Shown: piece after piece, positions 9,694-57,189 of the stretch
Numbering within the stretch: position 1 is the first letter of the stretch
How the letters are laid out: every line of letters starts with the position of its first letter
NCBI GenBank assembly: GCA_023261695.1
Contig: JAHFON010000003.1
Location: forward strand, 6,682-70,681
Length of the DNA stretch: 64,000 nucleotides
Reading direction: 5' to 3'
Source of the DNA: Candidatus Moraniibacteriota bacterium
GTDB taxonomy: Bacteria; Patescibacteriota; Minisyncoccia; Moranbacterales; UBA1568
The notes under the pieces: model-generated
What the model was told of the DNA's origin: nothing
Databases searched by the model: none
What the model saw: the letters and a program-made list of their open reading frames with translations, nothing else
Translations under genes and position numbers: made by a program

Positions 9694-9722
9694 TCTTGAG
9701 TGCGAAATCGATTTTTTGCACT

Positions 9723-9751
9723 TGTCATTTGCAGAAAATTTGTCTATAATT
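9723..9751 (+). promoter_or_regulatory. Sigma70-like promoter upstream of the TPR membrane protein gene
   Basis: TTGTCA (9723-9728), 17-nt spacer, TATAAT (9746-9751). Confidence 0.5.
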
Positions 9752-9786
9752 CACCATATAATAAATATTAAATAATTAACAAGTGT

Positions 9787-12764: not shown

Positions 12765-14804
12765 ATGCCGCTCTTTCAGCTCAAATCAGTTTATCGACCG
12801 GCGGGCGATCAGCCTCAAGCCATTGAATCTTTGACGCGGGGTTTGCGTGAGAACAAACGTTTTCAAACATTGCTCGGCGTAACCGGTTCCGGCAAGACCT
12901 TTACGATGGCCAATGTCATCGCGCGAATGGATAAGCCGGCGTTGGTGATCGCGCACAACAAAACGCTGACGGCGCAACTGGCCCAAGAGTATCAGGAACT
13001 TTTTCCCGATCACGCGGTGCATTATTTTGTTTCTTATTACGATTACTACCAGCCGGAGGCTTATATGCCGATGACGGATACGTACATAGAGAAAGACGCC
13101 CAGATCAACGCCGAGATTGATCGTTTGCGGCACGCCTCTACGCTTTCTCTTCTGACGCGCCGCGACGTGATTATCGTGGCGTCCGTGTCTTGCATTTACG
13201 GATTAGGAAGTCCGGAAGAATACGAGAAAGAGAATCTGCGGCTGGATGTCGGTTGGCAATGTTCGCGCATGGAGCTTTTGCGTAAGCTGGTGGCTATTTT
13301 TTTTGAGCGCACCAACGCTGATTTGCGAAGCGGGCAATTTCGGAGTATGGGCAATCGCGTGGAAATTATGCCGATGTCGGAAAAGTTCACCTATCTTTTG
13401 GAAATCTCCGGCGGCAGATTGGCGAGTATCAAAAAAATTGACCCCATTTCCCAAAAAATTCTGGATATGCCGCAAACAATTCTGCTCTTTCCGACAAAAC
13501 ATTTTGTCGCGAATGCGGAGCAAAAAGCTTCTGCGCTCAACTCTATTAGTCTGGAATTGGCAGAGCGCTTGCAAGAACTTGAAGCAGATGGGAAACTTCT
13601 GGAAGCGGAGCGGCTCAAGCGGCGCACGCATTACGATCTGGCGGTGATGCGGGAGATCGGTTATTGCAACGGCATTGAGAATTATTCTCGCCATCTTTCC
13701 GGAAAAAAACCGGGCGAACCGCCGGAAACTCTTCTTTCATATTTTCCGCGCACAAAAAGCGGAGAACCGGATTTTTTGACTATTATTGACGAATCTCACG
13801 CGACATTGCCGCAACTACGCGGAATGTACGCGGGCGATTTGGCGCGCAAAAAAACGCTGGTCCAATACGGTTTTCGTCTGCCATCCGCGCTGGATAACCG
13901 CCCGCTTCGTTTCGCGGAATTTATGTCTCGTGTCGGACAGGTAATTTTCACTTCGGCTACGCCGGCGGAATATGAACGTGAAACAAGCGAGCAGGTGGTT
14001 GAGCAAGTGATCCGTCCGACCGGATTGGTGGATCCGAGAGTTGAGACACGGCCGATTTTGGAGCAGGGAAAATATCACGGTCAAATACAAGATTTTATCG
14101 CTGAAGCGCTGAAAGAAATACAGGGCAAGGGACGCGTGATCGCGACGACGCTTACCAAAAAGATGGCTGAAGATTTGAGCGCGTATCTGAAAGAAAAACA
14201 GATTAAAGCCGAGTATTTGCACAGCGATATCAAAACGATTGAGCGCATCAAAATTTTGACGGCATTTCGCAGGGGGGAGTTTGACTGTTTGGTGGGGGTT
14301 AATTTGTTGCGGGAAGGTTTGGATTTGCCGGAAGTTTCTTTCATTGGAATTCTGGACGCGGACAAAACGGGATTTTTGCGTTCGGAAACCGCGTTGATTC
14401 AGATTATCGGACGTGCCGCGCGCAACGCATCCGGCCGCGTGGTGTTGTATGCTGATTATATGACTGACGCGATGCGCTATGCGCTTGATGAAACGAATCG
14501 ACGGAGAAAACTGCAATTAGCCTATAACAAGCGGCACAATATCACGCCGCGAACTATCCAAAAAACCATTCACGATATTACGGAGAGTCTGGAGAGCGAG
14601 CATAGCAAAGCGGTGCGCGCCAACGTGCTTTTGGATCGGGAAATTTTCGCGAATGATCCCAAACGTTTTATCGCCATCAAAGAAAAAGAGATGCGCCAAG
14701 CGGTGAAGGAGCTGGATTTTGAAACAGCCGCCATTCTGCGCGATGAGATTCGCGCGCTTCAAGTTCCTGCGGACGGTCCGTCGCGCAAAAAACCTCGCGG
14801 GTAA
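12765..14804 (+). CDS. uvrB: Excinuclease ABC subunit B
   Basis: MPLFQLKSVYRPAGDQPQAIESL...LLGVTGSGKTFTMANVI, helicase motifs and C-terminal UVR motif (ILRDEIRALQ). Confidence 0.95.
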   Translation: MPLFQLKSVYRPAGDQPQAIESLTRGLRENKRFQTLLGVTGSGKTFTMANVIARMDKPALVIAHNKTLTAQLAQEYQELFPDHAVHYFVSYYDYYQPEAYMPMTDTYIEKDAQINAEIDRLRHASTLSLLTRRDVIIVASVSCIYGLGSPEEYEKENLRLDVGWQCSRMELLRKLVAIFFERTNADLRSGQFRSMGNRVEIMPMSEKFTYLLEISGGRLASIKKIDPISQKILDMPQTILLFPTKHFVANAEQKASALNSISLELAERLQELEADGKLLEAERLKRRTHYDLAVMREIGYCNGIENYSRHLSGKKPGEPPETLLSYFPRTKSGEPDFLTIIDESHATLPQLRGMYAGDLARKKTLVQYGFRLPSALDNRPLRFAEFMSRVGQVIFTSATPAEYERETSEQVVEQVIRPTGLVDPRVETRPILEQGKYHGQIQDFIAEALKEIQGKGRVIATTLTKKMAEDLSAYLKEKQIKAEYLHSDIKTIERIKILTAFRRGEFDCLVGVNLLREGLDLPEVSFIGILDADKTGFLRSETALIQIIGRAARNASGRVVLYADYMTDAMRYALDETNRRRKLQLAYNKRHNITPRTIQKTIHDITESLESEHSKAVRANVLLDREIFANDPKRFIAIKEKEMRQAVKELDFETAAILRDEIRALQVPADGPSRKKPRG

Positions 14805-15592: not shown

Positions 15593-18175
15593 ATGCCCAA
15601 GAATATTTCGCAGAAAAATATTTCAGATACGCCGGAGTCGGGGTGGATCGTAGTCAAAGGCGCGCGCACCCACAATTTGAAGAATATTACAGTTAAGATA
15701 CCGCGCAATAAAATGACGGCTTTTACGGGACTGTCCGGCTCGGGTAAATCGTCGCTCGCATTTGACACTATTTTCGCGGAAGGCCAGCGTCGCTACATAG
15801 AATCGCTTTCCGCTTACGCGCGGCAGTTTTTGAATACCATGCAAAAACCCGACGTGGACGAGATCATCGGGTTGTCTCCGGCTATCTCCATTGATCAAAA
15901 GTCGGCGGGGCGCAACCCGCGTTCCACGGTGGCGACGGTCACGGAGATTTACGATTATTTGCGTGTTTTGTACGCGCGTTTGGGACGCTTGCGTTGTTTG
16001 ATTTGCGGAAGGGATATAGAGAAGCTGTCGCTGGAGGAAATGCTCGGCATTATCGCAAGTAAAATCAAACAAGCGCAAGCGGATCCTAAAACGCGCAAAC
16101 ACGGTCTTATCATCACGGCGCCGGTGGTGCGCGGACGCAAAGGCGAATATTATCAGCTTTTATACAACGCTTTAGGGCGAGGATTCGCGGAGATTATCTT
16201 GGATGGGGAGCGCAAGAATCTGCGCGAGCGAATTATTCTCTCTAAAAACAAAAAACACAATATTGATTTCATCGTGGATGAATTGCCGCTGGCTGAATTT
16301 GAAAAATTTCCCAAAACATCCGAAGAGCGTTTGTCTGAGGCGGTGCAAAAAGCGTTGGAAGAAAGCGAAGGACTGGTAAACGTGCGCGTCGGAGAGCAAA
16401 ATTTTACGCTTTCGGCGAAATTCTCTTGTCCTGATGACGGCTTTTCTTATCCGGAGGTGGAACCGCGCTTGTTTTCGTTTAATTCTCCGTACGGAGCGTG
16501 CGAGGCCTGCAATGGTCTGGGCACCAAACATTTTTTCGGCGATGAGTTATGCGAGATTTGTCAGGGCGCGCGTTTGCGTCCCGAAGCGCTGTCTATTTTT
16601 ATCGGCGGAAAGAATATCGCCGAAGTGGCGGCGATGACGATTGAAGAAGCGAAAAATTTTTTTGACGCTTTGGAACTTACGCCCCGGGAAAAACAAATGG
16701 CGGCGGTGATGCTTCGGGAAATTAGCGCGCGTTTGAAATTTTTGCTGAATGTCGGATTGAATTATCTGACGCTGGATCGGCGCGGGAGCACGCTTTCCGG
16801 AGGAGAAGCACAGCGCATCCGCCTGGCCAGTCAGCTCGGTTCGCAGTTGGTGGGGGCGCTCTATGTATTGGATGAACCGACGATCGGTCTGCATCAGCGC
16901 GACAATGATCGTCTGATAGAAACACTGAAAGCCCTGCGTGACTTGGGCAATACTATTATCATCGTTGAGCACGACGAGGATACGATTTATGCCGCGGATT
17001 ATCTCGTGGACATCGGTCCGGGAGCGGGAGTGCACGGCGGTGAAATAGTAGTCTCCGGTTATTTGGATGATCTGCTGACGGCCAGAGAGAACGTCTCCGG
17101 ATCATTGACACTGGCCTATTTGCGCGGCGAGGAAAAAATAACTATACCAAATCAGCGCCGCAGCAAAGAAAAAGGAACGCTCAAGATTCGCGGTGCCAAC
17201 ATTTTCAATATTAAAAATATGAACGTGGATGTTCCGCTCGGCCGTTTCAATGTGATTACGGGTGTTTCCGGTTCGGGCAAATCCACTCTGCTATATGAAA
17301 TAATTTACAAGAATTTGCAGGCGCGTTTTGACCGCCGTTACAGATCCAATGAAGTTTTTTACTGCCAATCATTCGGCGGTTCGGAATATCTGGCGCGGAC
17401 CGTCCTGATTGATCAGAGTCCGATCGGACGCACGCCGCGTTCCAATCCGGCGACTTACACCGGAGCGTGGACGCATATCCGCGATCTTTTTGCCGCAAGC
17501 GAAGAAGCGCGGGTGCGCGGCTGGAAAGCCGGACGTTTTTCTTTCAATCGTCCCGGCGGGCGCTGTGAAACTTGCGAGGGAAACGGTTTTCTCGCGGTGG
17601 AGATGCACTTTTTGCCCACCGTGTATATGGTGTGCGACGTCTGCGGCGGAAAACGTTTTACCAAAGAAACTCTGGAAGTGAAATATAAGCACAAGAATAT
17701 TTATGAAGTGCTGGAAATGACAATTGAAGAAGCATCGTCGTTTTTCGCCGATATTCCGGGTGTGGCGGATCGTCTGAAAACATTGAGCGAAGTCGGTTTG
17801 GAATATTTGAAACTCGGCCAGTCGGCCACGACGCTTTCCGGCGGCGAGGCCCAACGCGTGAAAATTTCTGCGGAACTGCATCGCAAATTTTATGACCGCG
17901 CGATTTATCTTTTGGACGAACCGACGATCGGATTGCACTACGCGGACGTGAAGAAACTCATTAAAATTCTGGAGAGTCTGGTGATCAAGGGGAATACCGT
18001 GTTGGTGATAGAGCACAATATGGATTTTATCAAAAACGCCGATTATGTGATTGACATCGGTCCGGAAGGCGGTGCCGGTGGAGGGAAAATCGTGGCGGTC
18101 GGCACGCCCGAAGAGGTGGCGCAAGCGGCGCACTCGCACACGGGGCGGTATCTGAAACGGGCACTGAAGAAGTGA
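15593..18175 (+). CDS. uvrA: Excinuclease ABC subunit A paralog (860 aa, lacks the insertion-domain segment)
   Basis: Two ABC ATPase modules ([14 protein letters not shown]; [11 protein letters not shown]), zinc-finger cysteines, UvrB-binding-domain motif [11 protein letters not shown]. About 90 aa shorter than the second copy between the CxxC motifs of the signature domain. Confidence 0.9.
18101..18175 (+). repeat. Direct repeat copy 1 (last 75 nt of uvrA), 59-nt identical core plus a similar terminal codon run
   Basis: ggcacgcccgaagaggtggcgcaagcggcgcactcgcacacggggcggtatctgaaacg is identical to 22069-22127. Both copies end ...LKKstop. Confidence 0.9.
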
Positions 18176-27430: not shown

Positions 27431-27740
27431 GAAATAGGTTCTAACTTGGTACAATAGAGACACAAATAAATAGTTTTTTTGTGCTGTAATTATACACCTC
27501 GTGCGCCATCAGTTCCGTTCAAAGTAGGTTCGGATTTCGTCAAATAAACGCACTATCTAAATAGTACTCCTTTTTGGAATGCTATTTTCAATAATTTGAG
27601 CGGGAGGAATGAGAAGGGCGCGAGTAGAAAGCGAGCAAGCAATCTCTCACTGAAGCTATACAAGCCTCTTTACACCGCGCGAAAAAGAATGTATGCTGGG
27701 AGACAATTGCGTTTTCTTTGTCAGCAGACTTTCCATAACT

Positions 27741-30539
27741 ATGCCGGGAAAAAAATCGGTTATTGAAATTCGCGGCGCGCGCGTCAACAATCTGAAAAAC
27801 GTGAACGTGGACATTCCGCGTGACGCTCTTGTGGTGATCACCGGACTTTCCGGTTCCGGAAAATCTTCTTTGGCTTTTGATACTTTGTTCGCGGAGGCCA
27901 ATCGGCGCTATGTGGAATCGCTTTCTTCGTACGCGCGCAATTTTCTGGACAATCTGGATAAACCGGATGTGGATGCGATTCACAATCTCTCACCGGCCAT
28001 TTCTATTGATCAGAAGAGTGTGTCGCGCAGTCCGCGTTCCACCGTCGGCACAATGACGGAAGTTTATGATTATCTGCGAGTGCTGTTTGCCAAACTCGGT
28101 GTGCCGCATTGTCCTGTGTGCGGCAAGCGTCTGACAAGAAAGAGCGCGCGCGAAATACTGGACGAGATTTTGCGTTTACCTGATGAGACGGCGCTGATTT
28201 TTACGGCTTATAATCCGACCTTGGTTGGAAAAACTGAAACTGAAGCGCTGGTCTCCATTGGCGGTTTAGGTTACGCGCGGGTGTTTTTTCGCGGAACTTT
28301 GTTGACGGTTGCCGAAGCCTCTGCCTTGGCTTCTCCCGTGAAAGTTTCCAAGGTAGAAATTGTTATTGATCGTCTGACTCTGGATTTCTCTCGCCTCGAC
28401 AAGGAGCGTATATTGGATTCTGTGCAGACGGCTTTTCACGTGGGGCAGGGAACATTTGTATTGCGCGTTCCTGCCACCGGCGAAGAGCGTTTTTATAATG
28501 AAGAGTACCTCTGTGAAAAATGCGGCGTGCATTTGCCGGAATTTACGCCGCGGCATTTTTCTTTCAATAATCCTGAAGGGGCCTGCGAGCAATGCGCCGG
28601 CCTTGGCGTAACATTGAAATTTGATCCGGAGCTCATCATTCCCAATAAAAATCTCTCGCTCTCCGAGGGGGCGATCCGTCCTTGGAGCAAAACCAACGGT
28701 GATCGCCATACCGGACAGGGGACGATGCAGTGGCTTCGCGAAGCCAGCCGCCAACACAAGTTTTCGCTGGACGTGCCGGTGAAAAAACTTTCTGCCAAAC
28801 ATTTGAATCTTATATTGTACGGAGAACGCGATGAACGCCAAGACGCTTTTCCGGGAGTCGTGGCACTGCTTCAAAAGAAATACCGTGAGACTAAATCCGA
28901 CCACTCACGTGCCGATATTGAGGCGTATATGTTGGTTAAAATCTGTTCGCTTTGCGAAGGCAGACGTCTGAAAGCCTCGGCGCGGGCCGTGAAGTTGGAA
29001 GGGTTTTCCATCAGTGATCTGACGCGCCAAAGCGTGGCGGCATTTTTGGAAACGCTGAAAGTTTTGCGCGAAAAATTATTGAAGACGGAGAAGTTGAAAA
29101 TTCTTGATCCTTTGTTTCGCGAGATGTCTATGCGTCTGCACGCGGTGGAAAAAGTGGGTTTGGGATATCTGGAACTCTCTCGCGGCGCCGACACTCTTTC
29201 TGGCGGAGAAGCCCAGCGTATACGTCTGTCGGTGCAGATGAAATCCGGGCTCTCGGGCATCATTTATGTTTTGGATGAACCGACCATCGGATTGCACAGC
29301 CGTGACACGGAAAGATTGATCAATGCGCTGGAAGATTTGCGCCGCGCCAATAATTCGCTGGTGGTGGTGGAACACGACGTTGCGATTATGCGTCGGGCGG
29401 ACTATATCATTGATATGGGTCCGGGGGCTGGCAGTAACGGCGGAGAGGTTATTTTCGCGGGCACGCCGAATATGCTTACGCATTCCAAACTTCTGACGGG
29501 GCAATATCTCTCCGGCAAGCGCGTTTTATCCGAAAAGAAACAATCGCGGCGCTTGAGCGAAGCGGCGATTACTATCTGCGGCGCGACCGAGCACAATCTG
29601 AAAAATATTGACGTAACGATTCCTCTGGGTATGCTGGTGGCGGTTTCCGGTGTTTCTGGTTCAGGGAAATCCAGTTTGGTGCATAATATTCTTTCCCGCG
29701 CTTTGTCCAAATATTTCTATCGTGCCAAACTTGAGCCGGGAGCGCATAAAAAAATCACCGGACTTTCCAATCTGGACAAAGTGATCACTGTCACCCAAGA
29801 TCCGATAGGCCGGACGCCGCGCTCCAATGCCGCGACATATACGGGGGTGTTTAGTTTGATCCGCGACTTGTTCGCGGAAACGATTGAAGCGGAGCGTGAT
29901 AAATATTCAGCCAGCCATTTTAGTTTCAATATGCGCGGCGGCCGCTGTGAAGCATGTCAGGGCGGCGGGTTGAAAAAAATTGAAATGTATCTTTTGCCGG
30001 ATGTTTACGTGCCGTGCGAAGTTTGCCAAGGAACGCGGTATAATGCCAAGACGCTGGCCATTGAATATCGCGGAATGAATATTGCCGACGTGTTGCGTAT
30101 GACGATAGCGGACGCGCGGAAATTTTTTCTGGATCAGCCGCTGATTGAAGAGAAATTGCGCGTTTTGGAAGAAGTCGGTCTCGGGTATCTCGTGTTGGGT
30201 CAGAGCGCGACCAATCTTTCCGGCGGAGAAGCCCAACGTATCAAACTGGCGACGGAACTTGCGCGCAAATCAACGGGCAAGACGCTCTATATTCTGGACG
30301 AGCCGACAATCGGTCTGCATTTTGAAGATGTGCGGCGTTTGTTTGAGGTGTTGGAGGCTCTGGTGGCGAAGGGGAACAGCGTGCTGGTCGTGGAGCACAA
30401 TATTGACGTGATTCGTTATGCCGATTGGGTGTTGGAGCTTGGTCCGGAGGGCGGCGAGCAGGGCGGCGAACTTATTTTCTCCGGCAGTCCCGCGAAATTA
30501 AAAACTTGCGCGCGTTCTTTCACGGCAAAGTATTTGTAA
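27741..30539 (+). CDS. uvrA: Excinuclease ABC subunit A (full-length, class I)
   Basis: [20 protein letters not shown]...[14 protein letters not shown], UvrB-binding and insertion domains present, second ABC module [11 protein letters not shown]. About 930 aa from ATG 27741. Confidence 0.95.
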
Positions 30540-44014: not shown

Positions 44015-45497
44015 ATGAAAATACTGGTTTCTCGGGAAGATGCGAATTATTGGCAGAAGAAAGGCGCTTTAGCATTCCGTTTTCAATTTGGAAATGAGAG
44101 TAAAGACGGAATTATCATAGAGCGAAACGGACAACATACGTGCTTTATCGCTTTGGGAGAGAAAGAAAAACCCGCCCGCAACGATTCGCAGGCGAAACGC
44201 GGTGATTCTGGCGGGATGACGCGGCGTAAGCTGATACTTCTGGCACGGCGGGTAGTCTTTGAGGCGTTGAGGAAAAAATACACAAACATCGTCTTGGACT
44301 TCCGGCAGTTTCGTTTTCCGGCAATCAAGATAACTGATGGCGAACTGGCTGAATTATTGGCGATAAACTTTCTGATGGCGAGTTTTGAATTTCGGGATTT
44401 TCTTTCCAAACCGAAAGAGGGGTTTCCAAAAGTAAATACCATTACTCTTGTGAACGCATCCGGAAAAGAAATTCAGAGTGGTATAGAACGCGGTATTATC
44501 ATCGGAGAAGAAGTGAATCATGCTCGGCATATTGCGACGATGCCGGGAGGAAATATGACGCCGGCGATTCTCGCCAAACATACCAAGCAATCCGTGAAAG
44601 GTTTGCCTATCCAATTCAGCGTTTTGAATGAGACGCAAATGGCGCGTTTGAAAATGGGCGGCGTGCTGGCTGTTGGTCAGGGGTCTCAAGAGAAGTCGCG
44701 TTTTATTATTTTGGAATATTTTGGCGCGGGTAAGCCCGCCCAAGGCGGATCCGCCTCTAGCGGAAAAGAAAAACCAATTTGTCCTTGTGGGCAAGGGCGT
44801 GACATTTGATACAGGCGGAATCAATCTCAAACCCACCGATGCCATTCTGGGGATGAATATGGATATGTCTGGCGGCGCGGCGGTTATTCATACGTTGATT
44901 GCTGCGGCTCGTTTGAAGCTTCGGAAAAATATTGTGGCGCTCATTCCGGCCGTGGAGAATGCGCCGTCGGGATCAAGTTATCGCCCCGGGGACGTGCTTC
45001 GTTCAATGTCCGGCAAGACGATTGAGGTGCGAAACACGGACGCGGAAGGCAGAATTATTTTGGCCGACGCGCTTACTTATGCCAAGCGTTACCGACCGGC
45101 GTTGGTTGTGGATGTCGCGACACTCACGGGTTCCGCGGTGGTCGCGCTCGGAGAAAGAGCCATCGCGCTTTTTACGCAAGACGAAAAATTGGAACAAACA
45201 TTTCGTCTTTTGGGTGAGGAGAGCGGGGATTATGTCTGGCCGTTGCCTTTGTGGGACGAGTATGACGAAGACATCAAAGGAGTGTTTGGCGATGTGGCGA
45301 ATGTCGGCAAAACGCGCTACGGAGATGCTATTTTAGCAGCCGTGTTTCTCAAACAATTTGTAGCGGACGCGTATCCATGGACGCACCTGGATATCGCGCC
45401 GCGGATGACGGCTTTACCTGATGAATTTCTAGCTAAAGGTTCCGCCGGCGCTCCCGTGAGACTTTTGGTAAAATTGCTGGAGAAGTTTACGAAGTAG
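44015..45497 (+). pseudogene. pepA: Leucyl aminopeptidase (M17) interrupted by a frameshift near 44745-44790
   Basis: N-part (frame 2, 44015-44809) and C-part (frame 0) with VGKGVTFDTGG and NTDAEGR motifs. A-rich run gaaaagaaaaacc at the junction. Confidence 0.75.
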
Positions 45498-47673: not shown

Positions 47674-49449
47674 ATGCGAAGCGGAGGTTATATCCGATCA
47701 AAAATAGAGAAGAAAAAACGCGCTTTTTCCGGAAATGAGAATCGGGTGCGGAGTCTGGGCGCGGTGGTTTTTTTTATCGGCGCGATTTTAATCGCGCGTT
47801 TGTATTTTATTCAGGTTGTAAGCTATGACAAATGGGTAGCCATCGCGGAGAATCAGCACAACGCTTTTCAGGCATTGATAGCTGATCGCGGAGAAGTCTA
47901 TATGCGCGATGGCGATGGCCGGTATCCGCTGGCTGTCAATCGCGAGTATCAGATGGTTTATGCTGTGCCGAGGGATATTATCGAAAAAGATTATACGGCT
48001 TCGGAACTCGCGCGTATTTTGTCACTGGATCGGTCCGTGATTGCGGAAAAGCTGAATCTCGCGAATGATCCTTTTGAAATCATCAAGAAGCGTTTGACGG
48101 ATGAAGAAGTGCAACAAATGAAACAAGTCGGACTCAAAGGCGTGGCCCTGCTTCCTGAAAAATATCGGTATTATCCGGCGGGAGAACTGGCTTCGCAGGT
48201 GGTGGGTTTCGTAAGTCTGGGCGGAAAAGACAGCGCGAGCGGATACGGCATAGAGTCGTCGCAGAATGATCACTTGCGGGGGAAAGACGGCGAGGTTTCA
48301 CAGGAAAAAGACGCGGCTGGCCGGTGGATTCCGCTGTCTGATCGTAATTTGGTATCTCCTCAAAATGGCGCCAGTTTGGTATTGACATTGGATCGCGTGA
48401 TCCAGTATGAAACGGAGAAGATACTTGGTGAAGCACTCCAAAGTTACGAAGCAAAGGGGGCATCGGCCATTGTGATGGATCCGAAAACCGGCGCAATTCT
48501 CGCGATGGCATCCCAGCCGCAATTTGATCCGAATAATTATTCCCAAGTGGAAGATTATTCCGTGTTTCTTAATCCCGCGATCAGCTTTTCGTATGAGCCG
48601 GGATCAATAATGAAGCCGATCACTATGGCCATCGGTATTGAAGAAGGAAAAGTCAACTCCAACACTGAATATGTGGACACGGGATCGGTATCTGCCAACG
48701 GCTATGTGATACGCAACGCTGAAGGCAAGGTATACGGCAGAAGCGCAATGACAAAAGTTCTGGAAGAATCCATCAATACCGGCGTGATCTTTGTGGAAAA
48801 ACTCATAGGACATCTCACTTTTAAGGAATATTTCGAACGTTTCGGATTTGGCGCGAAAACCAATATCGCCTTGCCGGCTGAACTGGCTGGCAATACGCTG
48901 AACTTGGAAAATACCCGCTCCGACGTGGCTTTTTTCACCGCGGCTTTCGGTCAAGGCGTGGCCGTGACGCCGCTTCAGATGACAACGGCGTACGCTGTTT
49001 TGGCCAATGGAGGCACGCTTTACAAACCGCAAATTGTTGAACGCGTTATCAACGCCGATGGGACGCAGGAAAAAATAGAGCCACAAGCAGTGCGCCGTGT
49101 TTTGAGTGAAGAAACCAGCCGGACTATAAGTGAGATGTTGCGCGGTGTTGTCACGCGCGGGCACGGAAAACGAGCGGACGTTCCGGGATATTTGGTCGGC
49201 GGCAAGACCGGTACGGCGCAAGTGGCGAAAAGTGACAGCAAGGGCTATGAAGAGGGGTTAAGCATCGGATCTTTTGTGGGTTACGCGCCGCTCAATGATC
49301 CGCGTTTTGTGGTTTTGGTGAAAATTGATAATCCCAAAAATGTGCAGTGGGCGGAATCCAGCGCCGCGCCGACCTTTGGCAAGATTATGAAATTTTTATT
49401 GGAGTACGCCAAGATCAAGCCGACAGAAATCGTTGCGCCGAAAAAGTAA
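47674..49449 (+). CDS. ftsI: Peptidoglycan D,D-transpeptidase (PBP2/FtsI class)
   Basis: N-terminal TM, SxxK (SIMK), SxN (SIN), KTG (KTGTA) motifs. Confidence 0.85.
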   Translation: MRSGGYIRSKIEKKKRAFSGNENRVRSLGAVVFFIGAILIARLYFIQVVSYDKWVAIAENQHNAFQALIADRGEVYMRDGDGRYPLAVNREYQMVYAVPRDIIEKDYTASELARILSLDRSVIAEKLNLANDPFEIIKKRLTDEEVQQMKQVGLKGVALLPEKYRYYPAGELASQVVGFVSLGGKDSASGYGIESSQNDHLRGKDGEVSQEKDAAGRWIPLSDRNLVSPQNGASLVLTLDRVIQYETEKILGEALQSYEAKGASAIVMDPKTGAILAMASQPQFDPNNYSQVEDYSVFLNPAISFSYEPGSIMKPITMAIGIEEGKVNSNTEYVDTGSVSANGYVIRNAEGKVYGRSAMTKVLEESINTGVIFVEKLIGHLTFKEYFERFGFGAKTNIALPAELAGNTLNLENTRSDVAFFTAAFGQGVAVTPLQMTTAYAVLANGGTLYKPQIVERVINADGTQEKIEPQAVRRVLSEETSRTISEMLRGVVTRGHGKRADVPGYLVGGKTGTAQVAKSDSKGYEEGLSIGSFVGYAPLNDPRFVVLVKIDNPKNVQWAESSAAPTFGKIMKFLLEYAKIKPTEIVAPKK

Positions 49450-49461
49450 TATTCAATACGT

Positions 49462-50253
49462 ATGGCCTCGCATCAAAGAAAAATGTTTGAAAATATTTTG
49501 CGTTTTATGGCGTGCGTGGTAATTCGCGCGCGTCAGCCGCTGATTATCGGGATCCTCGGATTATCCGGAAACACATTAACTAAAGAAGCAGTAACTTTGG
49601 TTTTATCCCAAACATATTTTGTCCGTAAGATACAAGGAGAACGCGCTGATGAAACCGATGTTTGGTTGACGATTATCGGCGCGTCAGACGCTCGCGCGCC
49701 GCTTATATATTTGATGGCGGCTTTTTTTCGCTGGCTGGCGATAATGGTTCTGCCTATACGCTATCCGGATGTGCTGGTGCTGGAAATGAACATTGAACAA
49801 CTTGGGGACGCAGAACATTTAATGAGTTGCATACCGATGAAAATCGGCGTGGTTACGCAGATTATCTCAAACGACAACACGTCTTCCGAATTTGCGGGAG
49901 ATGTCGTCAAAAAATATGGGAAGCTGATGGCGCTTCTGCCGGAAGACGGCTTTGCCATTTTGAACGCCGATGATAAACGCATACTTAAGCTTAGGGAAAA
50001 AACGCCAGCCAAAGTTATCACTTATGGTTTTGGCGCAGACGCGTTGTTGTTGGCGGATAACCCGGTTTCTCATCGCGAACTGGGGGGGGATGAAGGATTT
50101 AGTTTCAAACTTAATTATGATGGCAAAACGATACCTGTGCGCTTGCCGAAATCAGCTACCACGGCGCACATTGAACCGGCGCTTACGGCGGCGGCTGTCG
50201 GCATCGCGCTCAAAATGAATCTGGTGGAGATCGTTTCAATTTTGGAAACGTAA
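49462..50253 (+). CDS. Truncated/degenerate Mur-ligase-like protein (MurF/MurE-like fragment)
   Basis: LNADDKR, ITYGFG and a degenerate P-loop GLSGNT in place of GTNGKT. 263 aa, lacks C-terminal domain. Lies at the boundary of the AT-rich island. Confidence 0.45.
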   Translation: MASHQRKMFENILRFMACVVIRARQPLIIGILGLSGNTLTKEAVTLVLSQTYFVRKIQGERADETDVWLTIIGASDARAPLIYLMAAFFRWLAIMVLPIRYPDVLVLEMNIEQLGDAEHLMSCIPMKIGVVTQIISNDNTSSEFAGDVVKKYGKLMALLPEDGFAILNADDKRILKLREKTPAKVITYGFGADALLLADNPVSHRELGGDEGFSFKLNYDGKTIPVRLPKSATTAHIEPALTAAAVGIALKMNLVEIVSILET

Positions 50254-50407
50254 TTTGTTAAATTTTCCTTGATTTGCTACACTAACACCTCACAATCGAG
50301 TGGGTTAATTATGTTGAAATTGTGGAAACAAGTTCTTTATCAATTGAATGTATGATGAAGGAGAGCGTTGGTATTTTACAACAATGAAAAAACTAGGGAG
50401 GGGTATT

Positions 50408-50842
50408 ATGAAGTACATTCATATTCACGTACGAGTTGTTGATCTTGTAGAGATTCTCGGAAAAGACAGGTTTCCCAATCAAGAGGATGAGAAAGTCAAT
50501 GCTGGAGATCTTTTGGAATGGTGTGTTGTTAAATATCCTTCTGGTAATACTGGTAATAAAAATTCTCCCGGCAGAATAGGTGAGGTTTCATTGCTCTCGT
50601 TTCCTGTTCAGTTTATGCAGGACATGTTACTTTCTACCCTTGAGGGAAAAGAGTATGGCGTTGAAGAATGCAGAGGCATGAAGCATGTTCATTCTTGCGG
50701 TTGTATTGAAATCACTCGCTGGGCGCATTTAGATCGCGAGTTTGGCCAGTCTGTTCTTTGCCCAACTTGTAATGACCGCATGTATCGCACCGTTCCTTTT
50801 ATACAAAATACCGTTTCAAAATGTTCATTGCATGCTACATAG
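50408..50842 (+). CDS. Hypothetical Cys/His-rich small protein (first gene of AT-rich island)
   Basis: RBS gggagggg before ATG 50408. HSCGC...CPTC cysteine cluster. Confidence 0.35.
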   Translation: MKYIHIHVRVVDLVEILGKDRFPNQEDEKVNAGDLLEWCVVKYPSGNTGNKNSPGRIGEVSLLSFPVQFMQDMLLSTLEGKEYGVEECRGMKHVHSCGCIEITRWAHLDREFGQSVLCPTCNDRMYRTVPFIQNTVSKCSLHAT

Positions 50843-50980
50843 TCAGCTAACGAAGAAGGGTAGTTTACTATTTGCTGTAAGCCCTCGTGGTGGTAAGTTG
50901 TCCACCACGGGGGACTTTTTATTTTTGGAAAAATACCATATTATTAAATTCGGGTAGTCTATTAATATTGCTTAGTTTGT

Positions 50981-53900
50981 ATGTGCGGTATCGTAGGTAT
51001 TTTCGGAAAAAATAACGCAAGCCAAAGAGCTCGCGCCTCACTGGAGAAGATTGTTCATCGGGGTAGCAATGTGTACGAATTGAAAGATTTTGTAGGAGGA
51101 ACATTGGGGGCGAATAGGTTGCCTATTGTAGACCGTGAATTTGGCCAACAACCTTTGCCGAATGAGGATGGCGGTATCTTTGTTGTACAAAACGGAGAAG
51201 TTTTTAATTACAAGGAATTACAGGCAGAGCTCAAACAAAAGGGTCATAATTTCAAAACCGATTGTGATACAGAGGTGCTTGTACACTTATACGAAGAATA
51301 TCGTGAAAAAATGATGGATAAGATAGATTCTGAAATGTTTGCATTTGTTATTTATGATACCAAGACTAATTCAGTATTTGCGGCGCGAGATGCGTTAGGC
51401 GTTAAGCCATTGTATTATGCAACAGATAAAACTGGACAATTTTATTTTGCATCCGAGATTAAACAACTTTCTTGTTTTGATGACATTAAAAATATTCGTG
51501 TTTTTCCGCCAGGGCATTATTATGAAAATGGTAAGTTTAAACAGTACCTATCATTAAAAATCGGCAATAATATTAAAAATGAAAAGAGAGCAACTAGGGA
51601 GCTCGAGGTGCGCTTAGTAGATGCTGTGAAAAAACGTGTTAAGACAGATTTACCTATAGGTGTGTTGTTATCTGGGGGCGTCGATAGTAGTTTAATCATG
51701 GAAATTGCATCTCGCTTACATCCTGATGTAACTGGAATTATTCTCGGTTATCCTGGTTCGTCTGATCATGAATTCGCACTTCGTTTATGCAAAGAGCGTG
51801 GATATAAATATCATATAGTGAGGCCGGATATAGATTACAAGCAAGAGTTAGATCTGCTGATCTATCACTTAGAAACTTACGAGCCGCTTATTATTAGGCA
51901 ATCATTTGCTTTAGATATTTGCGCGCGTGAAGCGCAGCGGCTAGGGTTAAGAATTGTTTTGGTTGGAGAGGGTTCTGATGAGTTGTTTGGCGGATATAAT
52001 GAATTTTCCAATTTGCCTGATAAACTGATCAACAAGGGCTGCGAGATGTTAGTTAAATCCTTGCATGCCGGACATTTACAACGTGTTGACCGCATGAGTA
52101 TGAAGCATACGGTTGAAGTTCGCTGTCCGTTTTTTGATAAAGATGTTGTAAAATTAGCGTTGCAGATTCATGGGGATCTAAAAGTTAGAAGGCAAAACCA
52201 TCAAATAATAACTAAATATATTGTCAGAAAGGTTGCGGAGAATTTTTTACCCTCTTATATTGCATGGAGATACAAAGTTCCTTTTAGCAATGGAGCCGGT
52301 ATGAATGTGGGAAGTAACTTTAAGGTTCAAGATGGCGATGTTGCAAAAGTAGTATTGCAAAAAGCGGAAGTAAATATAGAGACAGAGGTTGTCAAAAAAT
52401 ATGGTGTAAATACCAAAGAAGGTAGGTATTATTTAAAAAAATACTTTGAATATGGCTTTGATAAAGTTGTTGGTTCAGAAAGGCGTTTAATTGTGAAGGA
52501 CAATTTAGGTGATTTATATAAGGCGAAAAGAACTCGGCTTGTGATGGCTGAATTTGACAGGTTGGCTATATATTTTCCTGTGTATTTTGCCGCCCAAGAG
52601 GGGTATTTCAAAACTCATGATCTTGAGGTGGATTTTATAGCAACTGGAGGTGATGATCGTACGTATGCTTCGCTTGTCAATAACTCAGCTCACATAGGGC
52701 TTGCTGATCCTATGTTTGCAATGTTTGAAAATATCGGGGGAGTAAAAGGTGAAATTATTGGAGAGTTGGTTAATATTGTTCCGAATGTTGCGGTGACAAT
52801 AAACCCAAGTATACAGATTAACGAAATTAAAGATTTTACAAAATATAGGGTGGGGACTTTTCAAAAATTCACTACTACGCACAGCGTAGCGAAATATTTT
52901 TTGCCTTCGCAAACCGAAATTATTCCTTATGATTATGATGAATTAGTCGGGAAATTAATAGATAGAAAAATAGATGTGGCGATAGTTATCCCGGAACAAG
53001 CGGTTGAACTTGTTGCTTCTGGCGGACGGATTGTTTTTGATTTTAAGATTTTAGGTAAAAACTTTTTATTTAGCGGCTTTACGATATCCAATCTGATTGA
53101 ATTAAAATACAGGAAAAAACTCAAGTCTTTTATTAGCGCAATTCGTGAATCAACTCGTTACATTATTAAAAATAAAGAAATTTCATTTAAAACTTTTCAA
53201 AAACTCTTTCCGTATCTAAAAAATCCGCGAGTGATTTTTGATTATTATCTGGATATTTGGTCGCCGACTATTAAGGTTGAGAATTCAGATTATCACGCAG
53301 CCCAAAAAATGTGGAAACAAGTCTGTCCGGAACTCTTGAAAGAATATTTGCCTTATTTCGGAACTAAATCAATTACTGAGCCTGTTCTCGAAAAAATTAA
53401 TGATAGAAATTTTAGGAGAGATTTTCCATTTTTAGAAGATCGTCTAGAAGAATTAATAATCAATTCAATGAGCAACGGCGCTGTTTTAAAATTTATCGGG
53501 TTTTGGGGCGCTGGCAAGAAAAATCGAATTACGACCTTGGATAAAGAAATAATAGACAGATTAAAAAAGTATTTTGATGGGATCAGGAAGGTTTTGGGCG
53601 CGAATATTGAGATTACTTTTATTCTTGCAGATGAGCACGCAAAAAATAACGGTTTCGTTCCCAGAGAATACAATAGTTACCTTTCAGGAATAAAAGAATA
53701 TTTGGAAAAAAATGATTTCAAAACGATGCATTTAAATATTTTATGGAAAAAATGGGGATTAAATCAGAGTTGCATTATTAAATTGTTAGAGAAAAAATCT
53801 GAAAGATGGTGGAGAGATGTTCCGATAGCAGAAAAATTAGAAAATCAGGCAGTAAAGAGATTCCTATTCAAAAATAAAAAAGAGGGGGCGCAAAAATATT

Positions 53901-54067
53901 ATATAATGCGTATGCTTGAGAAATCACATATGGAAAAAAGTTTTAAGGATAGTGTATTTTTTGTCTTTTCAGATGGTGCAATGCAAACAATCTATCCGAA
54001 AATTGCAACTTTGTATTTAAACACAAGAAAACGAGGATTTGGGGAGGCGCCATGGTTTGAGAATTAA
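50981..54067 (+). CDS. Asparagine synthetase-family amidotransferase (class II GATase + PP-loop synthetase) with about 490-aa C-terminal extension
   Basis: MCGIVGIF (Cys2 nucleophile), SGGVDSS PP-loop. Residues 540 onward include a region resembling SsuA/NMT1-type substrate-binding folds, then an unknown domain. About 38% GC. Confidence 0.8.
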   Translation: MCGIVGIFGKNNASQRARASLEKIVHRGSNVYELKDFVGGTLGANRLPIVDREFGQQPLPNEDGGIFVVQNGEVFNYKELQAELKQKGHNFKTDCDTEVLVHLYEEYREKMMDKIDSEMFAFVIYDTKTNSVFAARDALGVKPLYYATDKTGQFYFASEIKQLSCFDDIKNIRVFPPGHYYENGKFKQYLSLKIGNNIKNEKRATRELEVRLVDAVKKRVKTDLPIGVLLSGGVDSSLIMEIASRLHPDVTGIILGYPGSSDHEFALRLCKERGYKYHIVRPDIDYKQELDLLIYHLETYEPLIIRQSFALDICAREAQRLGLRIVLVGEGSDELFGGYNEFSNLPDKLINKGCEMLVKSLHAGHLQRVDRMSMKHTVEVRCPFFDKDVVKLALQIHGDLKVRRQNHQIITKYIVRKVAENFLPSYIAWRYKVPFSNGAGMNVGSNFKVQDGDVAKVVLQKAEVNIETEVVKKYGVNTKEGRYYLKKYFEYGFDKVVGSERRLIVKDNLGDLYKAKRTRLVMAEFDRLAIYFPVYFAAQEGYFKTHDLEVDFIATGGDDRTYASLVNNSAHIGLADPMFAMFENIGGVKGEIIGELVNIVPNVAVTINPSIQINEIKDFTKYRVGTFQKFTTTHSVAKYFLPSQTEIIPYDYDELVGKLIDRKIDVAIVIPEQAVELVASGGRIVFDFKILGKNFLFSGFTISNLIELKYRKKLKSFISAIRESTRYIIKNKEISFKTFQKLFPYLKNPRVIFDYYLDIWSPTIKVENSDYHAAQKMWKQVCPELLKEYLPYFGTKSITEPVLEKINDRNFRRDFPFLEDRLEELIINSMSNGAVLKFIGFWGAGKKNRITTLDKEIIDRLKKYFDGIRKVLGANIEITFILADEHAKNNGFVPREYNSYLSGIKEYLEKNDFKTMHLNILWKKWGLNQSCIIKLLEKKSERWWRDVPIAEKLENQAVKRFLFKNKKEGAQKYYIMRMLEKSHMEKSFKDSVFFVFSDGAMQTIYPKIATLYLNTRKRGFGEAPWFEN

Positions 54068-54091
54068 TGATAATTTTTTTAGTTTTAATAT

Positions 54092-55966
54092 ATGGAAAAT
54101 TGGAATTTGTTAAAGCAGGAGACCTCTGTTGTTTCAGGGGATAGAAAAATTGAACAAGAAGAAAAAGAGCGGGTTATTCGAAAAATTGCTCTTGCGACGA
54201 CCAACCAAATGGATACAGGAATTCGGGCTGTATCTGCAGCACTTAAAGACGCCGGGTTTGATGTCATGAAATTAAATTTATACGAAGATGCTAAACATAA
54301 GACTGGCGCTGATTATTCCGAAGAAGAATTACAGGCTATAATAGAAAAATTGAAAGAATTTGGAACTAATGCTTTTGGTATTTCTATTTTTGAAGTGGGT
54401 TCTACACGGGCTTTTACTTTAATTAAAAAAGTAAAAGAAGTTCTCAAGATACCAGTTTTATTGGGTGGACAACACGCAATTCAGTATCCTGATGAGTGCT
54501 TGCAATCTGGCGCTGACGCAGTCTGCATAGGAGAGGGAGAATCTGGTTTAGTGGAGTTGCTGGAAAATTGGGACAGACGTTTTGAAAGGAAGAATCTTAA
54601 TTTTGTGATTCGGAAAGAAGATTTGGTCAAATTAGATGAATTACGATCCAAGTTATTTACAGAAGAGGAAATAAGTAATTTTACTTTTGATTTTAGTTAT
54701 CACAACTACTTCGTTTTGCGGGAAGGGAAAATGGTTCCTCTGACACCAGATAATGTTAAAAACCCGGAACATCACCAGGTTGATCGTGAAGCAAAAACAT
54801 TTGTTTACGCTTCCGATAGAGGTTGTCCTCTGAATTGTTCTTTTTGTTATATCAGTAATTTGCGTAAAGAATTCATCAAAGCGAGTGTTGCAAAAGGAGA
54901 AAAGCCAATTCCTTTTTTGAGAAGAAAGAAGGCAGGTGCGGTAATCAGAGATCTTGAAGATGCAAAGAGACAGAATTCATGGATAGAATTTTTGAATCTT
55001 ATGAATGATGATACGGCTGCGCGTGATAAAGATGATCTGCAAGAATTTTCAAGGTTGTATAAAGAAAAAATAGGGTGGCCGTTTTATTGTATGGTAAGTC
55101 CGATAAGTCTTTTTGATAAGTCAAAATGGCAAACTGGTAACACCCTGGGTGCAGTAGAGGAAGGAAGATTAAAAATTCAAGCTCTTGTTAATGCTGGATT
55201 GAAAGAATTGAATATGGGTATACAAACGAATGGGAAAACAAATTTTGAAATATATGATAGATGGCAACCAGATGAAGTGATGCTTATGATTACACACATG
55301 CTTCATGAGTTTGCTCGTTTAGACTTGAATAAAAATGAAGACGGTAAAGTGGATTTATTTTTTGATTTTATTATTCATAATCCACTTGAAATGCGAGAAG
55401 ACATAAAGCGCACAATAGAACTTATAAAGAGACTGAAGCCGCCATTTGATCTTGTAGCTCATACTCTATATGTGGGAAAAAGGTCAAGAATGCGCAGCGC
55501 TTATGAATACGAAAAAAAGAAGGCAACACAAGAAGAGAGACCTTATGAAAAGGTTATAGAAGATGTTGTCGGGGAATCGGATTTTCATGATACGCACAGA
55601 TTTTATGACTATCTCAAAGACAATCATAATTTTGTGATTAACTCTGTTATAGAATTTATGGCCGGCAGACATGATGTAAATATGACAGGCAGAATTCCAA
55701 GGCATGCCAAAGATTTGATGGTATTTGATGTGTTTAGAGCGTTACGAGAAAAGCATCCTGATTTTGAAAAATTATTGTTAGAGCTTCAAATTTCAGATTC
55801 ATTGTTGTCTATTGATTTATTTGCTTCAGATAAGGTAGATCGATATTTTAGGGAAAACGAAGGTGTGTTTAAGGAATTATTTGTATCAATGCAAGAAGCG
55901 CATCCGATTTGTTATTCTAATGAAGCCAAGGCACGGACGGGGAGAATTTTAACTCAACAAGAATAA
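54092..55966 (+). CDS. Cobalamin(B12)-binding-domain radical SAM enzyme (second paralog in window)
   Basis: N-terminal B12-binding-like Rossmann (IPVLLGGQHA), CxxxCxxC (CPLNCSFC). AT-rich. Confidence 0.75.
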   Translation: MENWNLLKQETSVVSGDRKIEQEEKERVIRKIALATTNQMDTGIRAVSAALKDAGFDVMKLNLYEDAKHKTGADYSEEELQAIIEKLKEFGTNAFGISIFEVGSTRAFTLIKKVKEVLKIPVLLGGQHAIQYPDECLQSGADAVCIGEGESGLVELLENWDRRFERKNLNFVIRKEDLVKLDELRSKLFTEEEISNFTFDFSYHNYFVLREGKMVPLTPDNVKNPEHHQVDREAKTFVYASDRGCPLNCSFCYISNLRKEFIKASVAKGEKPIPFLRRKKAGAVIRDLEDAKRQNSWIEFLNLMNDDTAARDKDDLQEFSRLYKEKIGWPFYCMVSPISLFDKSKWQTGNTLGAVEEGRLKIQALVNAGLKELNMGIQTNGKTNFEIYDRWQPDEVMLMITHMLHEFARLDLNKNEDGKVDLFFDFIIHNPLEMREDIKRTIELIKRLKPPFDLVAHTLYVGKRSRMRSAYEYEKKKATQEERPYEKVIEDVVGESDFHDTHRFYDYLKDNHNFVINSVIEFMAGRHDVNMTGRIPRHAKDLMVFDVFRALREKHPDFEKLLLELQISDSLLSIDLFASDKVDRYFRENEGVFKELFVSMQEAHPICYSNEAKARTGRILTQQE

Positions 55967-56082
55967 TTGACCGGCTTGCTCAATTAGAAATGTAGGTGTG
56001 TAAATGTATGATAGAGTTTCTGGATTTTTAGTGGGGCTGCATAAGTTCAGATACATTTGGCAGTCCTCTTAATTGAGGACTT

Positions 56083-57189
56083 ATGCAACAATTCAACAAG
56101 TTTAGGGGAACGAAAGGATTTATTGTAGCTTGGCAACATCTGTTACGCTTTCGGTATATGATTACCGAACAAGCGCAAGAACGGTGCCGCAGACTCGCTT
56201 TCTGGGAGCGTCATGGCACCAAGGCAGCCACAGAAGCCTTTCATATCTCAGAACGCACATTGTTTCGTTGGCAGGCGGCGTTGAAAACCTCACGGGGAAA
56301 ACTGGACGGACTTAATCCGAAGAGTACGGCTCCGCGCGCGAGGAATCAAAGAATCGTTTCGCCCCAACTGGCACAAGCTATCATCGCGCTCCGTTTTGCA
56401 CACCCTCGCCTTGGCAAAGACAAGCTCCGGCCTCTGCTTTTAGCCAGCAAGCATCCGGTGTCTGTCTCAACGATAGGCCGGATCCTCGCTGATTTGAAGC
56501 AAGCGGGGAAACTGCCTGATCCAAAGAAGCTTTCTCTGTCAGGCGCTACCGGGAAACTGTTGGAAAAGAAGCGTCAGAAAAGGAAAAAACTGCGGAGACC
56601 AAAGGGACAGAGAGTTCTTGAAGTGGATACCGTTGTCCGTTTCATTGACGGCGTAAAACGCTACATCGTCACGGGCATTGATACGGAAACCCGAGTCGCC
56701 TTTGCCGCCTGCTATACGAATCACGGATCCTCCTCGGCCTCTGACTTCTTGCAAAGAGCCCAACAAGTTATTCCGGATTGTCCGGAGGCCGTCCAGACGG
56801 ATAATGGCAGTGAGTTTGCGCTCCATTTTGAAACGGCCTGTCTGCTACTGGGTCTGACTCATTTCCATACTTATCCCAGATCTCCCCAGATGAATGCTCA
56901 CATCGAACGCTTTAATCGTACGTTAGATGAAGAATTTCTCTGTTACTCCAAAGCGTTAATGCGAGATGATGTCCAGAGCTTCAATCAGAAGCTCATTGAC
57001 TGGTTCCTCTGGTACAATGGCGAAAGGCCGCACTATGCTCTTGGCCAAGTTGCCCCCTTGAGGTATATGATGAGATTATTATTCGCAGAGGACTGCCAAA
57101 TGTGGTGGACGCATACAGGGGCTTGCGTGCTTGCGAGAAAAAAGTTATTATATTTGCAGAGAGAAAATGCGTCGGTTTTTCTCCGCTAA
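56083..57189 (+). mobile_element. IS481-family-like single-ORF DDE (rve) transposase
   Basis: N-terminal HTH, integrase core D...D...E: DTVVRFIDG...IDTETR, QTDNGSEF, ERFNRTLDEEF. GC close to host (about 52%). No terminal inverted repeats could be defined. Confidence 0.75.

Follow-up and report, generated by a model that had tools for sequence, protein, structure and literature searches.

The stretch of DNA analysed here (the window, 64,000 nucleotides) is a part of contig JAHFON010000003.1 (positions 6,682 to 70,681 of the forward strand) of the assembly GCA_023261695.1 from a Candidatus Moraniibacteriota bacterium. At positions 50981-54067 of its + strand it carries a fusion gene which starts with ATG, contains no internal stop codon and codes for a protein of 1028 amino acids (aa) composed of four modules. 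Module 1 (residues 1-195, 50981-51565) is a class II (N-terminal nucleophile, Ntn) glutamine amidotransferase with Cys2 as the nucleophile, module 2 (residues 196-518, 51566-52534) an AsnB-type PP-loop adenylating synthetase, module 3 (residues 519-793, 52535-53359) a cytoplasmic binding-protein fold of the Thi5/NMT1/SsuA type, and module 4 (residues 794-1028 with the stop codon, 53360-54067) a predicted divergent domain of the PvcA/IsnA/Dit1 superfamily. Every module belongs to a known superfamily. The fusion gene is followed on the same strand, after 24 nt, by a gene (54092-55966) coding for a B12-binding radical S-adenosylmethionine (radical-SAM) protein of 624 aa, recognized by Pfam, and the two genes are probably co-transcribed.

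The fusion is not confined to the window. The contig 'uncultured bacterium AM_bin-0953' of a metagenome-assembled genome (MAG; locus L010) codes for an ortholog of exactly 1028 aa, 62% identical to the window protein and aligned with it without a gap, and orthologs of 1026 and 1051 aa are present in a Pacearchaeota MAG (L011) and in another bacterial MAG (L012), respectively. A metagenome scan contributed 47 more loci, and altogether about 20 distinct and independent metagenome or MAG loci carry orthologs of 1026-1051 aa with all four modules present. Moreover, a separate Logan assembly (L017, run SRR14366796) contains 9065 bp of the window locus at 100% identity. The preliminary description of this DNA, made from its letters, had pointed to an unusual fusion of an AsnB core with a substrate-binding-protein-like domain and a C-terminal domain, which is confirmed by the Pfam matches and the orthologs; the alternative that it had named, two genes joined by a sequencing error, is excluded by the gapless ortholog, the collinear full-length orthologs, and the identical independent assembly. 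Defective copies of the gene exist as well, one (L004) interrupted in frame by TAA at codon 83, another (L005) by a frameshift, which shows that the fusion family is also decaying in places.

The amidotransferase and synthetase modules are readily recognized by Pfam, with GATase_7 matching residues 45-163 (E = 4e-39; GATase_6, E = 1e-31) and Asn_synthase matching from residue 208 on (E = 2e-51). The protein passes the cut-off of TIGR01536 (asparagine synthase, glutamine-hydrolysing; 340.9 bits vs. 267.1) and stays below that of PRK09431, the 'asparagine synthase B' equivalog (394.5 bits vs. 499). Its closest PDB sequence is that of E. coli AsnB (1ct9, phmmer E = 2e-62), followed by human asparagine synthetase (ASNS). 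The N-terminus reads MCGI, and the glutaminase-site residues C2, R46, N71, E73, and D96, which align with those of E. coli AsnB 1ct9, are invariant in the 17 orthologs compared, as are the PP-loop S231-G-G-x-D235-S236 and residues D333 and E334. The same orthologs share with the window protein 55-70% identity in the amidotransferase and 53-73% in the synthetase. The earlier assignment of a functional asparagine synthetase core therefore stands as far as motifs go: Cys2, the Arg/Asn/Glu/Asp set, SGGxDSS, and GEGSDE are all conserved, and by this conservation the core looks catalytically intact.

The acidic GEGSDE pocket is kept, with E330 being Glu or Asp across the family, and the equivalent of Asp400 of human ASNS is an invariant His365. 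E330, D333, and E334 of the fusion protein are the equivalents of human ASNS Glu364, Asp367, and Glu368, which hold beta-aspartyl-AMP by its alpha-amino end (PMC6748925). Since this pocket is retained, the substrate of the AsnB core probably has a free alpha-amine, aspartate being its simplest candidate.

Module 3 matches Pfam NMT1 (PF09084) at residues 533-731 (E = 3.4e-14, 53.7 bits vs. a cut-off of 20.5), and the peptide on which the earlier proposal of an SsuA/NMT1/THI5-type fold behind the synthetase was based forms the N-terminal part of this match. An AlphaFold2 (AF2) model of residues 519-1028, built from a 13-sequence alignment, has a predicted local distance difference test score (pLDDT) of 89.9 and a predicted template modelling score (pTM) of 0.88; the latter value suggests that the binding-protein fold and the C-terminal domain are held in a fixed mutual arrangement. 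Foldseek comparison of module 3 with the PDB bears out the proposed fold: the best matches are the Thi5 hydroxymethylpyrimidine phosphate (HMP-P) synthases 4h67, 4h6d, and 4esx (E of ca. 4e-14, template modelling (TM) score on the target 0.6-0.7), followed by AF1704, ThiY, and a thiamin-binding substrate-binding protein (SBP), and then by MqnD, SsuA, PqqT, and TauA, with E values for Thi5, ThiY, SsuA, and MqnD ranging from 1e-10 to 4e-14. A Thi5-like HMP synthase activity was considered and ruled out, because both catalytic residues of the Thi5 sequence GLKAMIH, Lys62 (binding pyridoxal phosphate) and His66 (sacrificial), are replaced in the aligned GLADPMF of the window protein. The binding fold is 40-75% identical to that of the window in the 17 orthologs, and its invariant polar residues are mostly acidic (E524, D558, D559, D576, D618, and E723), so that a sulfonate or phosphate site would be less likely than a cationic or amine ligand or a purely structural role. 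None of the observations speaks for the ligands proposed in the preliminary description (a pyrimidine or sulfonate-like moiety or a sugar nucleotide). Rfam gives no match in the whole window, and thus no known riboswitch or other RNA upstream of the gene to name the ligand.

Residues 794-1028 match no Pfam or NCBIfam model, even at E<=10. The earlier statement that the tail of the protein has no recognizable motif is therefore true for the hidden Markov models (HMMs) of these libraries; the tail itself was put at about 300 aa and in fact comprises about 235, the binding-protein fold extending to residue ~793. Its fold could nonetheless be assigned. The AF2 model of the C-terminal domain, from a 12-sequence alignment (A2), has a pLDDT of 93.3 and a pTM of 0.90, and the top eight Foldseek matches in the PDB are PvcA (3e59) and PIsnA (9dhm, 9dh4), all with probability 1.00, E from 9e-7 to 7e-6, and a TM score on the query (TMq) of 0.60-0.66; from rank 9 onward follow the catalytic domains of class I tyrosyl- and tryptophanyl-tRNA synthetases (TyrRS/TrpRS) and cyclodipeptide synthases (CDPS).

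Linking sequences lead to the same superfamily. PF05141 (DIT1_PvcA) is matched at E<=0.01 by 14 of the 56 stand-alone relatives of the domain (best E = 6e-8); relatives in L024 and L057 score 17.9 bits against a gathering score of 26.4, and one relative has been annotated by JGI as 'pyoverdine/dityrosine biosynthesis protein Dit1'. A profile of the 56-sequence family finds PIsnA 9dhm among 177,635 PDB sequences at E = 3.8e-4; a narrower 12-sequence profile finds no match in the PDB sequences. In the alignment of the family profile with PIsnA, 'ilaDtHa' falls on 'ICSDGHV', a Tyr on a Tyr, 'GxWGxGxK' on 'PAFPTKSPN', and an acidic residue on 'DMAE'. The domain also has a signature of its own, invariant in the 17 orthologs: F841-W842-G843...K847, H886...N890, Y900, E980, Q1002, and P1024-W1025. 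In total, 19 of its positions are invariant in these orthologs at an overall identity to the window domain of 30-54%.

On the strength of the predicted structure, the linking sequences, and the family profile, the C-terminal domain, left without assignment in the preliminary description, can be placed in the PvcA/IsnA/Dit1 superfamily as a divergent domain, a putative and not a proven isonitrile synthase, and it probably forms a second catalytic centre of the fusion protein. The possibility raised there that the region is simply a long helical C-domain of an AsnB homolog is excluded by the structure prediction and Foldseek.

The distribution of the C-terminal domain was followed by searching all of 1.84 billion cluster representatives (clusters at 50% identity) with an HMM, which found 609 proteins at E<=1e-3, 133 of them at E<=1e-30. 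Word-index protein searches gave only 2-3 proteins, so that the exhaustive search and the metagenome scan were by far the richer sources. Fusion contexts were read from the best 150 of the 609 family members. Among these the domain occurs alone (~220-290 aa), behind AsnB without the binding fold (~720-790 aa), behind a binding-protein-like domain (~500 aa), in the full form with both (1024-1036 aa), frequently behind an ANL-type AMP-binding adenylase (~710-810 aa), and, in two cases, fused to a CT_C_D domain of the PxpB/KipI type. Proteins composed of AsnB and the binding fold that lack the C-terminal domain were also found (L006, P0011, and P0013). At L013 the modules are split into a 506-aa AsnB gene and, 2 nt further on, a stand-alone 223-aa copy of the C-terminal domain; this locus is probably archaeal, since TrmB and STT3/AglB genes are among its neighbours. 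All pairwise combinations of AsnB, binding fold, and C-terminal domain thus exist, a pattern that typically marks functionally linked modules. Judging from the domain matches, the recurrent partner of the C-terminal domain is a carboxylate-adenylating enzyme, drawn from either of two unrelated folds, AsnB and ANL.

Most family-bearing contigs have a G+C content of 31-40%. Public annotations of these proteins are piecemeal: 'asparagine synthase', 'ABC-type nitrate/sulfonate/bicarbonate substrate-binding protein', or 'hypothetical protein'. Three tri-domain proteins, P0025, P0032, and P0033, have Trp at positions occupied by Gly in all other orthologs (MCWI, SGWVDSS, WEWADE); they probably come from bacteria in which UGA codes for Gly (genetic code 25), the UGA codons having been mistranslated as Trp. 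The loci L001-L003, probably archaeal because of the ABCE1/RLI and TrmB genes nearby, code for an AsnB and IsnA-like protein without the binding-protein domain (at 7506-9674 in L001), and 15 nt upstream of this gene lies one for a pyroglutamyl peptidase (Peptidase_C15). This neighbour, together with the fusions to the PxpB/KipI 5-oxoprolinase-type domain, may hint at a lactam or pyroglutamate theme.

The protein encoded downstream of the fusion gene matches B12-binding PF02310 (E = 2e-14, 54.2 bits vs. a cut-off of 32.1) and, slightly below the cut-off, Radical_SAM PF04055 (E = 9e-6, 26.4 bits vs. 29.5), and its CxxxCxxC motif is found in the alignment as GCPLNCSFC. No curated subfamily comes close to its cut-off (the best, TIGR04013, gives 50 bits vs. 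251), and sequence comparison reveals no homolog of solved structure. To see what accompanies the fusion gene, neighbouring ORFs were clustered by all-against-all similarity in 65 stretches, comprising the fetched loci and positions 40001-64000 of the window, which represent 49 non-redundant locus groups. The B12-binding radical-SAM gene is the commonest neighbour, being found beside the fusion gene or parts of it in about 10 locus groups (the window, L010, L019, L021, L022, L025, L046, L006, L023, and L024), with pairwise E values between homologs of 1e-42 and 1e-101.

Other recurrent neighbours are a regulator that carries two helix-turn-helix domains of the AsnC type and is transcribed divergently (five loci) and TrmB-family regulators (four loci). 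A second conserved gene pair is formed by distant stand-alone IsnA-like copies (23-30% identity), which at six loci (L052, L054, L056, L057, L058, and L060, about 8 kb into each) directly precede a gene of the Creatininase amidohydrolase family (PF02633, E = 7e-60). ORFs of 136-164 aa upstream of different cassettes are mutually unrelated, and on this ground a conserved small ORF or precursor peptide in that position was rejected. A role in anti-phage defence, prompted by ART-PolyVal, PemK, Fic, and restriction-modification-like neighbours, was rejected, as PADLOC gave nothing significant: it has no match for the fusion protein, its C-terminal domain, or the 164-aa ORF described below, and only marginal ones for the radical-SAM protein (E = 2e-4, 18 bits). 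A phage-borne origin of the gene was likewise rejected, no relative being found in an IMG/VR scan.

The fusion gene and the radical-SAM gene lie in a 5.8-kb island, in which the G+C content drops from ca. 0.47-0.50 to 0.30-0.42 (approximately 50250-56050). Its left border is marked by a C-terminally truncated Mur ligase gene (49462-50253, + strand), which follows ftsI, codes for 263 aa with only the Mur_ligase_M domain (its homolog in L025 has 429 aa), and ends exactly at the G+C drop; the remainder of a typical dcw cluster (mraY, murD, ftsW, etc.) is missing downstream of it. At the left end of the island there is a gene for a Cys-rich protein of 164 aa (ORF164, 50348-50842, + strand; HSCGC...CPTCN) with no match in Pfam, NCBIfam, or PADLOC. 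It is separated from the fusion gene by a strong terminator-like hairpin (50882-50913), shows no homology to the small ORFs that precede other cassettes, does not occur beside those cassettes, and probably is not a part of the cassette. The right border is an insertion sequence (IS) of the IS481 family (56053-57103, + strand) whose 17-nt inverted repeats (56053-56069 and 57087-57103) match perfectly. Its transposase ORF (56083-57189; rve/rve_3 and NF033577 IS481, E = 5e-53) reads through the right repeat, and just past the element lie the dTDP-rhamnose genes rmlC, rmlB, and rmlD.

In L025 the cassette also abuts ftsI and a mur gene (2160-10607, compared with 47674-55966 in the window), on the opposite side and in a different orientation. 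Between these two loci the fusion proteins are 63% identical, the adjacent FtsI proteins 40%, and the Mur ligases 30%. Because the island is low in G+C and bordered by an IS, and the fusion protein is more alike than FtsI, these data indicate that the fusion and radical-SAM genes form a horizontally mobile cassette of low-(G+C) uncultured lineages, including one represented by the Pacearchaeota MAG. The shared ftsI-mur adjacency could mean either that insertions favour this site or that the cassette has a weak functional tie to genes of the cell wall. A class A penicillin-binding protein gene is located within a few genes of a family member in L005 and L039.

The rest of the contig has an ordinary bacterial gene content: dnaE, gyrB, uvrA, uvrB, type IV pilus genes, and a dcw cluster. 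Two UvrA-like paralogs of 860 aa (15593-18175) and 948 aa (27693-30539) are encoded on the same strand within 12 kb, and uvrB lies at 12765-14804. The gene for an M17 leucyl aminopeptidase, pepA (44015-45497), is split into two overlapping ORFs in different frames, corresponding to positions 2-74 and 74-310 of the Pfam profile; it is a frameshift, arising either in a pseudogene or from an assembly error.

Taken together, the locus can be read as a two-gene, horizontally transferred cassette making a modified amino-acid amide, in which one polypeptide unites two catalytic centres. This reading is preferred here with a confidence just short of an even balance. The domain identities, the intact catalytic motifs, the recurrent fusions and neighbours, and the island setting are shown by the data; in the following scheme, which substrates are used, in which order the steps run, and what is made are all inferred. 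Cys2 of module 1 would hydrolyse glutamine, and the ammonia released would pass to the PP-loop site of module 2, where a carboxylate is adenylated; the AsnB half would thus amidate the carboxylate of an amino acid at the expense of glutamine and ATP, most simply converting L-aspartate into L-asparagine. By analogy with its superfamily, module 4 might then combine the primary amine of the same molecule with a ketose phosphate to give an isonitrile or an N-formyl group. That the AsnB half acts first and the IsnA-like domain second is suggested because the synthetase site retains the alpha-amine pocket. Module 3 would be a non-catalytic clamshell packed on module 4, which either holds the substrate or intermediate or acts as a scaffold for both active sites, and the product would then be modified by the B12 radical-SAM enzyme, e.g., by C-methylation. 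The idea put forward earlier, of a binding domain gating an amidotransferase, is in this way shifted in emphasis towards the coupling of two enzymes, an amidotransferase that adenylates and one resembling isonitrile synthases, with the binding fold in between.

Several observations weigh against this scheme. The window C-terminal domain itself gives no PF05141 match at E<=10, and its link to that family depends on intermediate sequences and on a structural similarity to PvcA and PIsnA that is moderate (TMq of 0.66, root-mean-square deviation of ~6 Å, 11-15% identity). The invariant residues N890, K847, E980, and Q1002 have no demonstrated counterpart in IsnA. Isonitrile synthases are usually partnered with an Fe(II)/2-oxoglutarate oxygenase of the IsnB/PvcB type, and none is found among the recurrent neighbours in the 49 locus groups, where Pfam was applied to the most recurrent families only and no direct search was made, so that an oxygenase of a rarely recurring family may have escaped notice. 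The radical-SAM gene is absent, despite adequate flanks, from L012, L026, L027, L037, L041, and L044, and is therefore an optional partner. Finally, the AsnB part is the most conserved one and passes TIGR01536, so that the protein could be a plain asparagine synthetase with accessory domains.

The last point leads to an alternative which is unlikely but is the most serious competitor of the cassette reading, namely that the protein is an ordinary asparagine synthetase whose binding-protein-like and IsnA-like domains are non-catalytic sensor or regulatory modules tuning asparagine synthesis to a metabolite. Such a function agrees with the TIGR01536 score, with E. coli AsnB being the closest solved relative, with identities of up to 73% in the AsnB modules, and with the position of the split AsnB and C-terminal domain pair of L013 among housekeeping sugar-nucleotide genes. 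Against it stand the fusions of this C-terminal domain to ANL adenylases, enzymes unrelated to asparagine, and the invariant polar residues which the domain retains and which align with PIsnA motifs; furthermore, the PRK09431 threshold is missed, and the gene resides in a low-(G+C), IS-bordered island together with a radical-SAM gene.

A quite improbable alternative is a cell-envelope amidotransferase acting on a peptidoglycan stem peptide or a glycan, with the binding-like domain holding a muropeptide or sugar-nucleotide acceptor. AsnB homologs amidate meso-diaminopimelate in some bacteria, and such an activity would fit the genes near the cassette: ftsI and a Mur ligase gene, which adjoin it both in the window and in L025 (there with another orientation), class A penicillin-binding protein genes in L005 and L039, and rmlC, rmlB, and rmlD past the IS element of the window. 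However, a penicillin-binding protein gene is nearby in only four of the 49 locus groups, by a rough estimate a weak excess over chance; most loci lack envelope genes, including the archaeal ones, whose hosts have no murein; and the adjacency in the window was created by insertion of the island, which truncated the Mur ligase gene. An envelope function would also leave the IsnA-like domain and the radical-SAM enzyme without a role. That the long ORF is an artefact, in which a sequencing or assembly error has run two or three genes together, or else a functionless pseudogene in decay, is scarcely credible: the apparent frameshift of pepA on the same contig (44015-44809 and 44673-45497) and the broken L004 and L005 copies are outweighed by the gapless ortholog, the independent full-length orthologs and identical assembly described above, and the invariance of catalytic residues in every module.

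Within the preferred reading of a cassette making a modified amino-acid amide, a more specific proposal can be formulated, possible but on the doubtful side: a new enzymatic route that pairs an IsnA-like domain in cis with a carboxylate-adenylating enzyme (AsnB in the window protein, ANL in sister proteins) to produce an isocyano- or N-formyl-amino-acid amide (e.g., from asparagine), tailored by the B12 radical-SAM enzyme. The small product would be bioactive or metal-binding, and ultra-small bacteria and archaea would exchange it horizontally. Another, undescribed amine-ketose condensation is an alternative activity for the divergent domain. The ultra-small hosts are deduced from the one Pacearchaeota ortholog and the three homologs with Trp for Gly typical of lineages with UGA coding for Gly. 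The probability remaining beside the preferred reading and its competitors belongs to chemistries that cannot be named.

No description of a fusion of AsnB or ANL enzymes with a PvcA/IsnA/Dit1-like domain, nor of AsnB with an NMT1 fold, was found in the searchable literature. The claim of a novel architecture made in the preliminary description holds in this respect, and has to be qualified in another, as the protein represents a recurrent natural family. Within the isonitrile-synthase superfamily, the C-terminal domain family forms a large sister branch of at least 609 clusters (50% identity), largely missed by Pfam and NCBIfam, whose members are habitually fused to adenylating enzymes or encoded beside them, which points to carboxylate activation or amidation and not to oxidative decarboxylation. 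Its tri-domain form is present in the MAG of a member of the Pacearchaeota (DPANN), in contigs resembling those of bacteria in which UGA codes for Gly, and in many other low-(G+C) uncultured contigs. Ultra-small bacteria and archaea are believed to be nearly devoid of secondary metabolism, and the cassette could be among the few specialised-metabolite cassettes of such minimal organisms. If the proposed chemistry is true, it would provide a new enzyme architecture for amidotransferase and isonitrile biochemistry and correct the automated annotations; if the C-terminal domain is only regulatory, the result would be a modest note on an unusual AsnB.

The relation of the fusion protein to known systems differs from module to module. 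The first 518 residues have the same two-domain layout as AsnB (1ct9 and human ASNS), with the Cys nucleophile, the glutamine-site residues, SGGxDSS, and GEGSDE; the protein departs from AsnB in its 510 additional C-terminal residues, in His365 standing for Asp400, in the sub-threshold PRK09431 score, and in the location of its gene in a mobile island adjoining a radical-SAM gene. Module 3 shares the fold and the Pfam NMT1 match with Thi5/NMT1 and with class II SBPs of the SsuA/ThiY type; unlike these, it is internal and cytoplasmic, with no signal peptide, has Lys62 and His66 of Thi5 replaced, and conserves mostly acidic residues. The radical-SAM neighbour resembles class B (cobalamin-dependent) enzymes in its N-terminal B12-binding domain and CxxxCxxC core, and differs from the known ones in a C-terminal extension of ~250 aa without assigned function. 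Module 4 has in common with PvcA/IsnA/Dit1 (PF05141; 3e59, 9dhm), by the profile alignment, the Asp-x-His motif and a Tyr, and also a similar core size; it is ~70 residues shorter than PvcA, does not match PF05141, and bears its own signature (FWG...K, ...H..N, PWF). PvcA/IsnA-type isonitrile synthases are known mainly as stand-alone enzymes, whereas module 4 is fused to AsnB or ANL adenylases. A conceptual precedent for joining an isocyanide-synthase domain to a carboxylate-adenylating one is CrmA, a fungal hybrid of an isocyanide synthase (ICS) with a nonribosomal peptide synthetase (NRPS)-like A-T adenylation unit, in which the isocyano acid is activated in cis. CrmA is eukaryotic, has its domains in another order and another kind of adenylase than the fusion family, and comprises neither a glutaminase nor a binding-protein fold.

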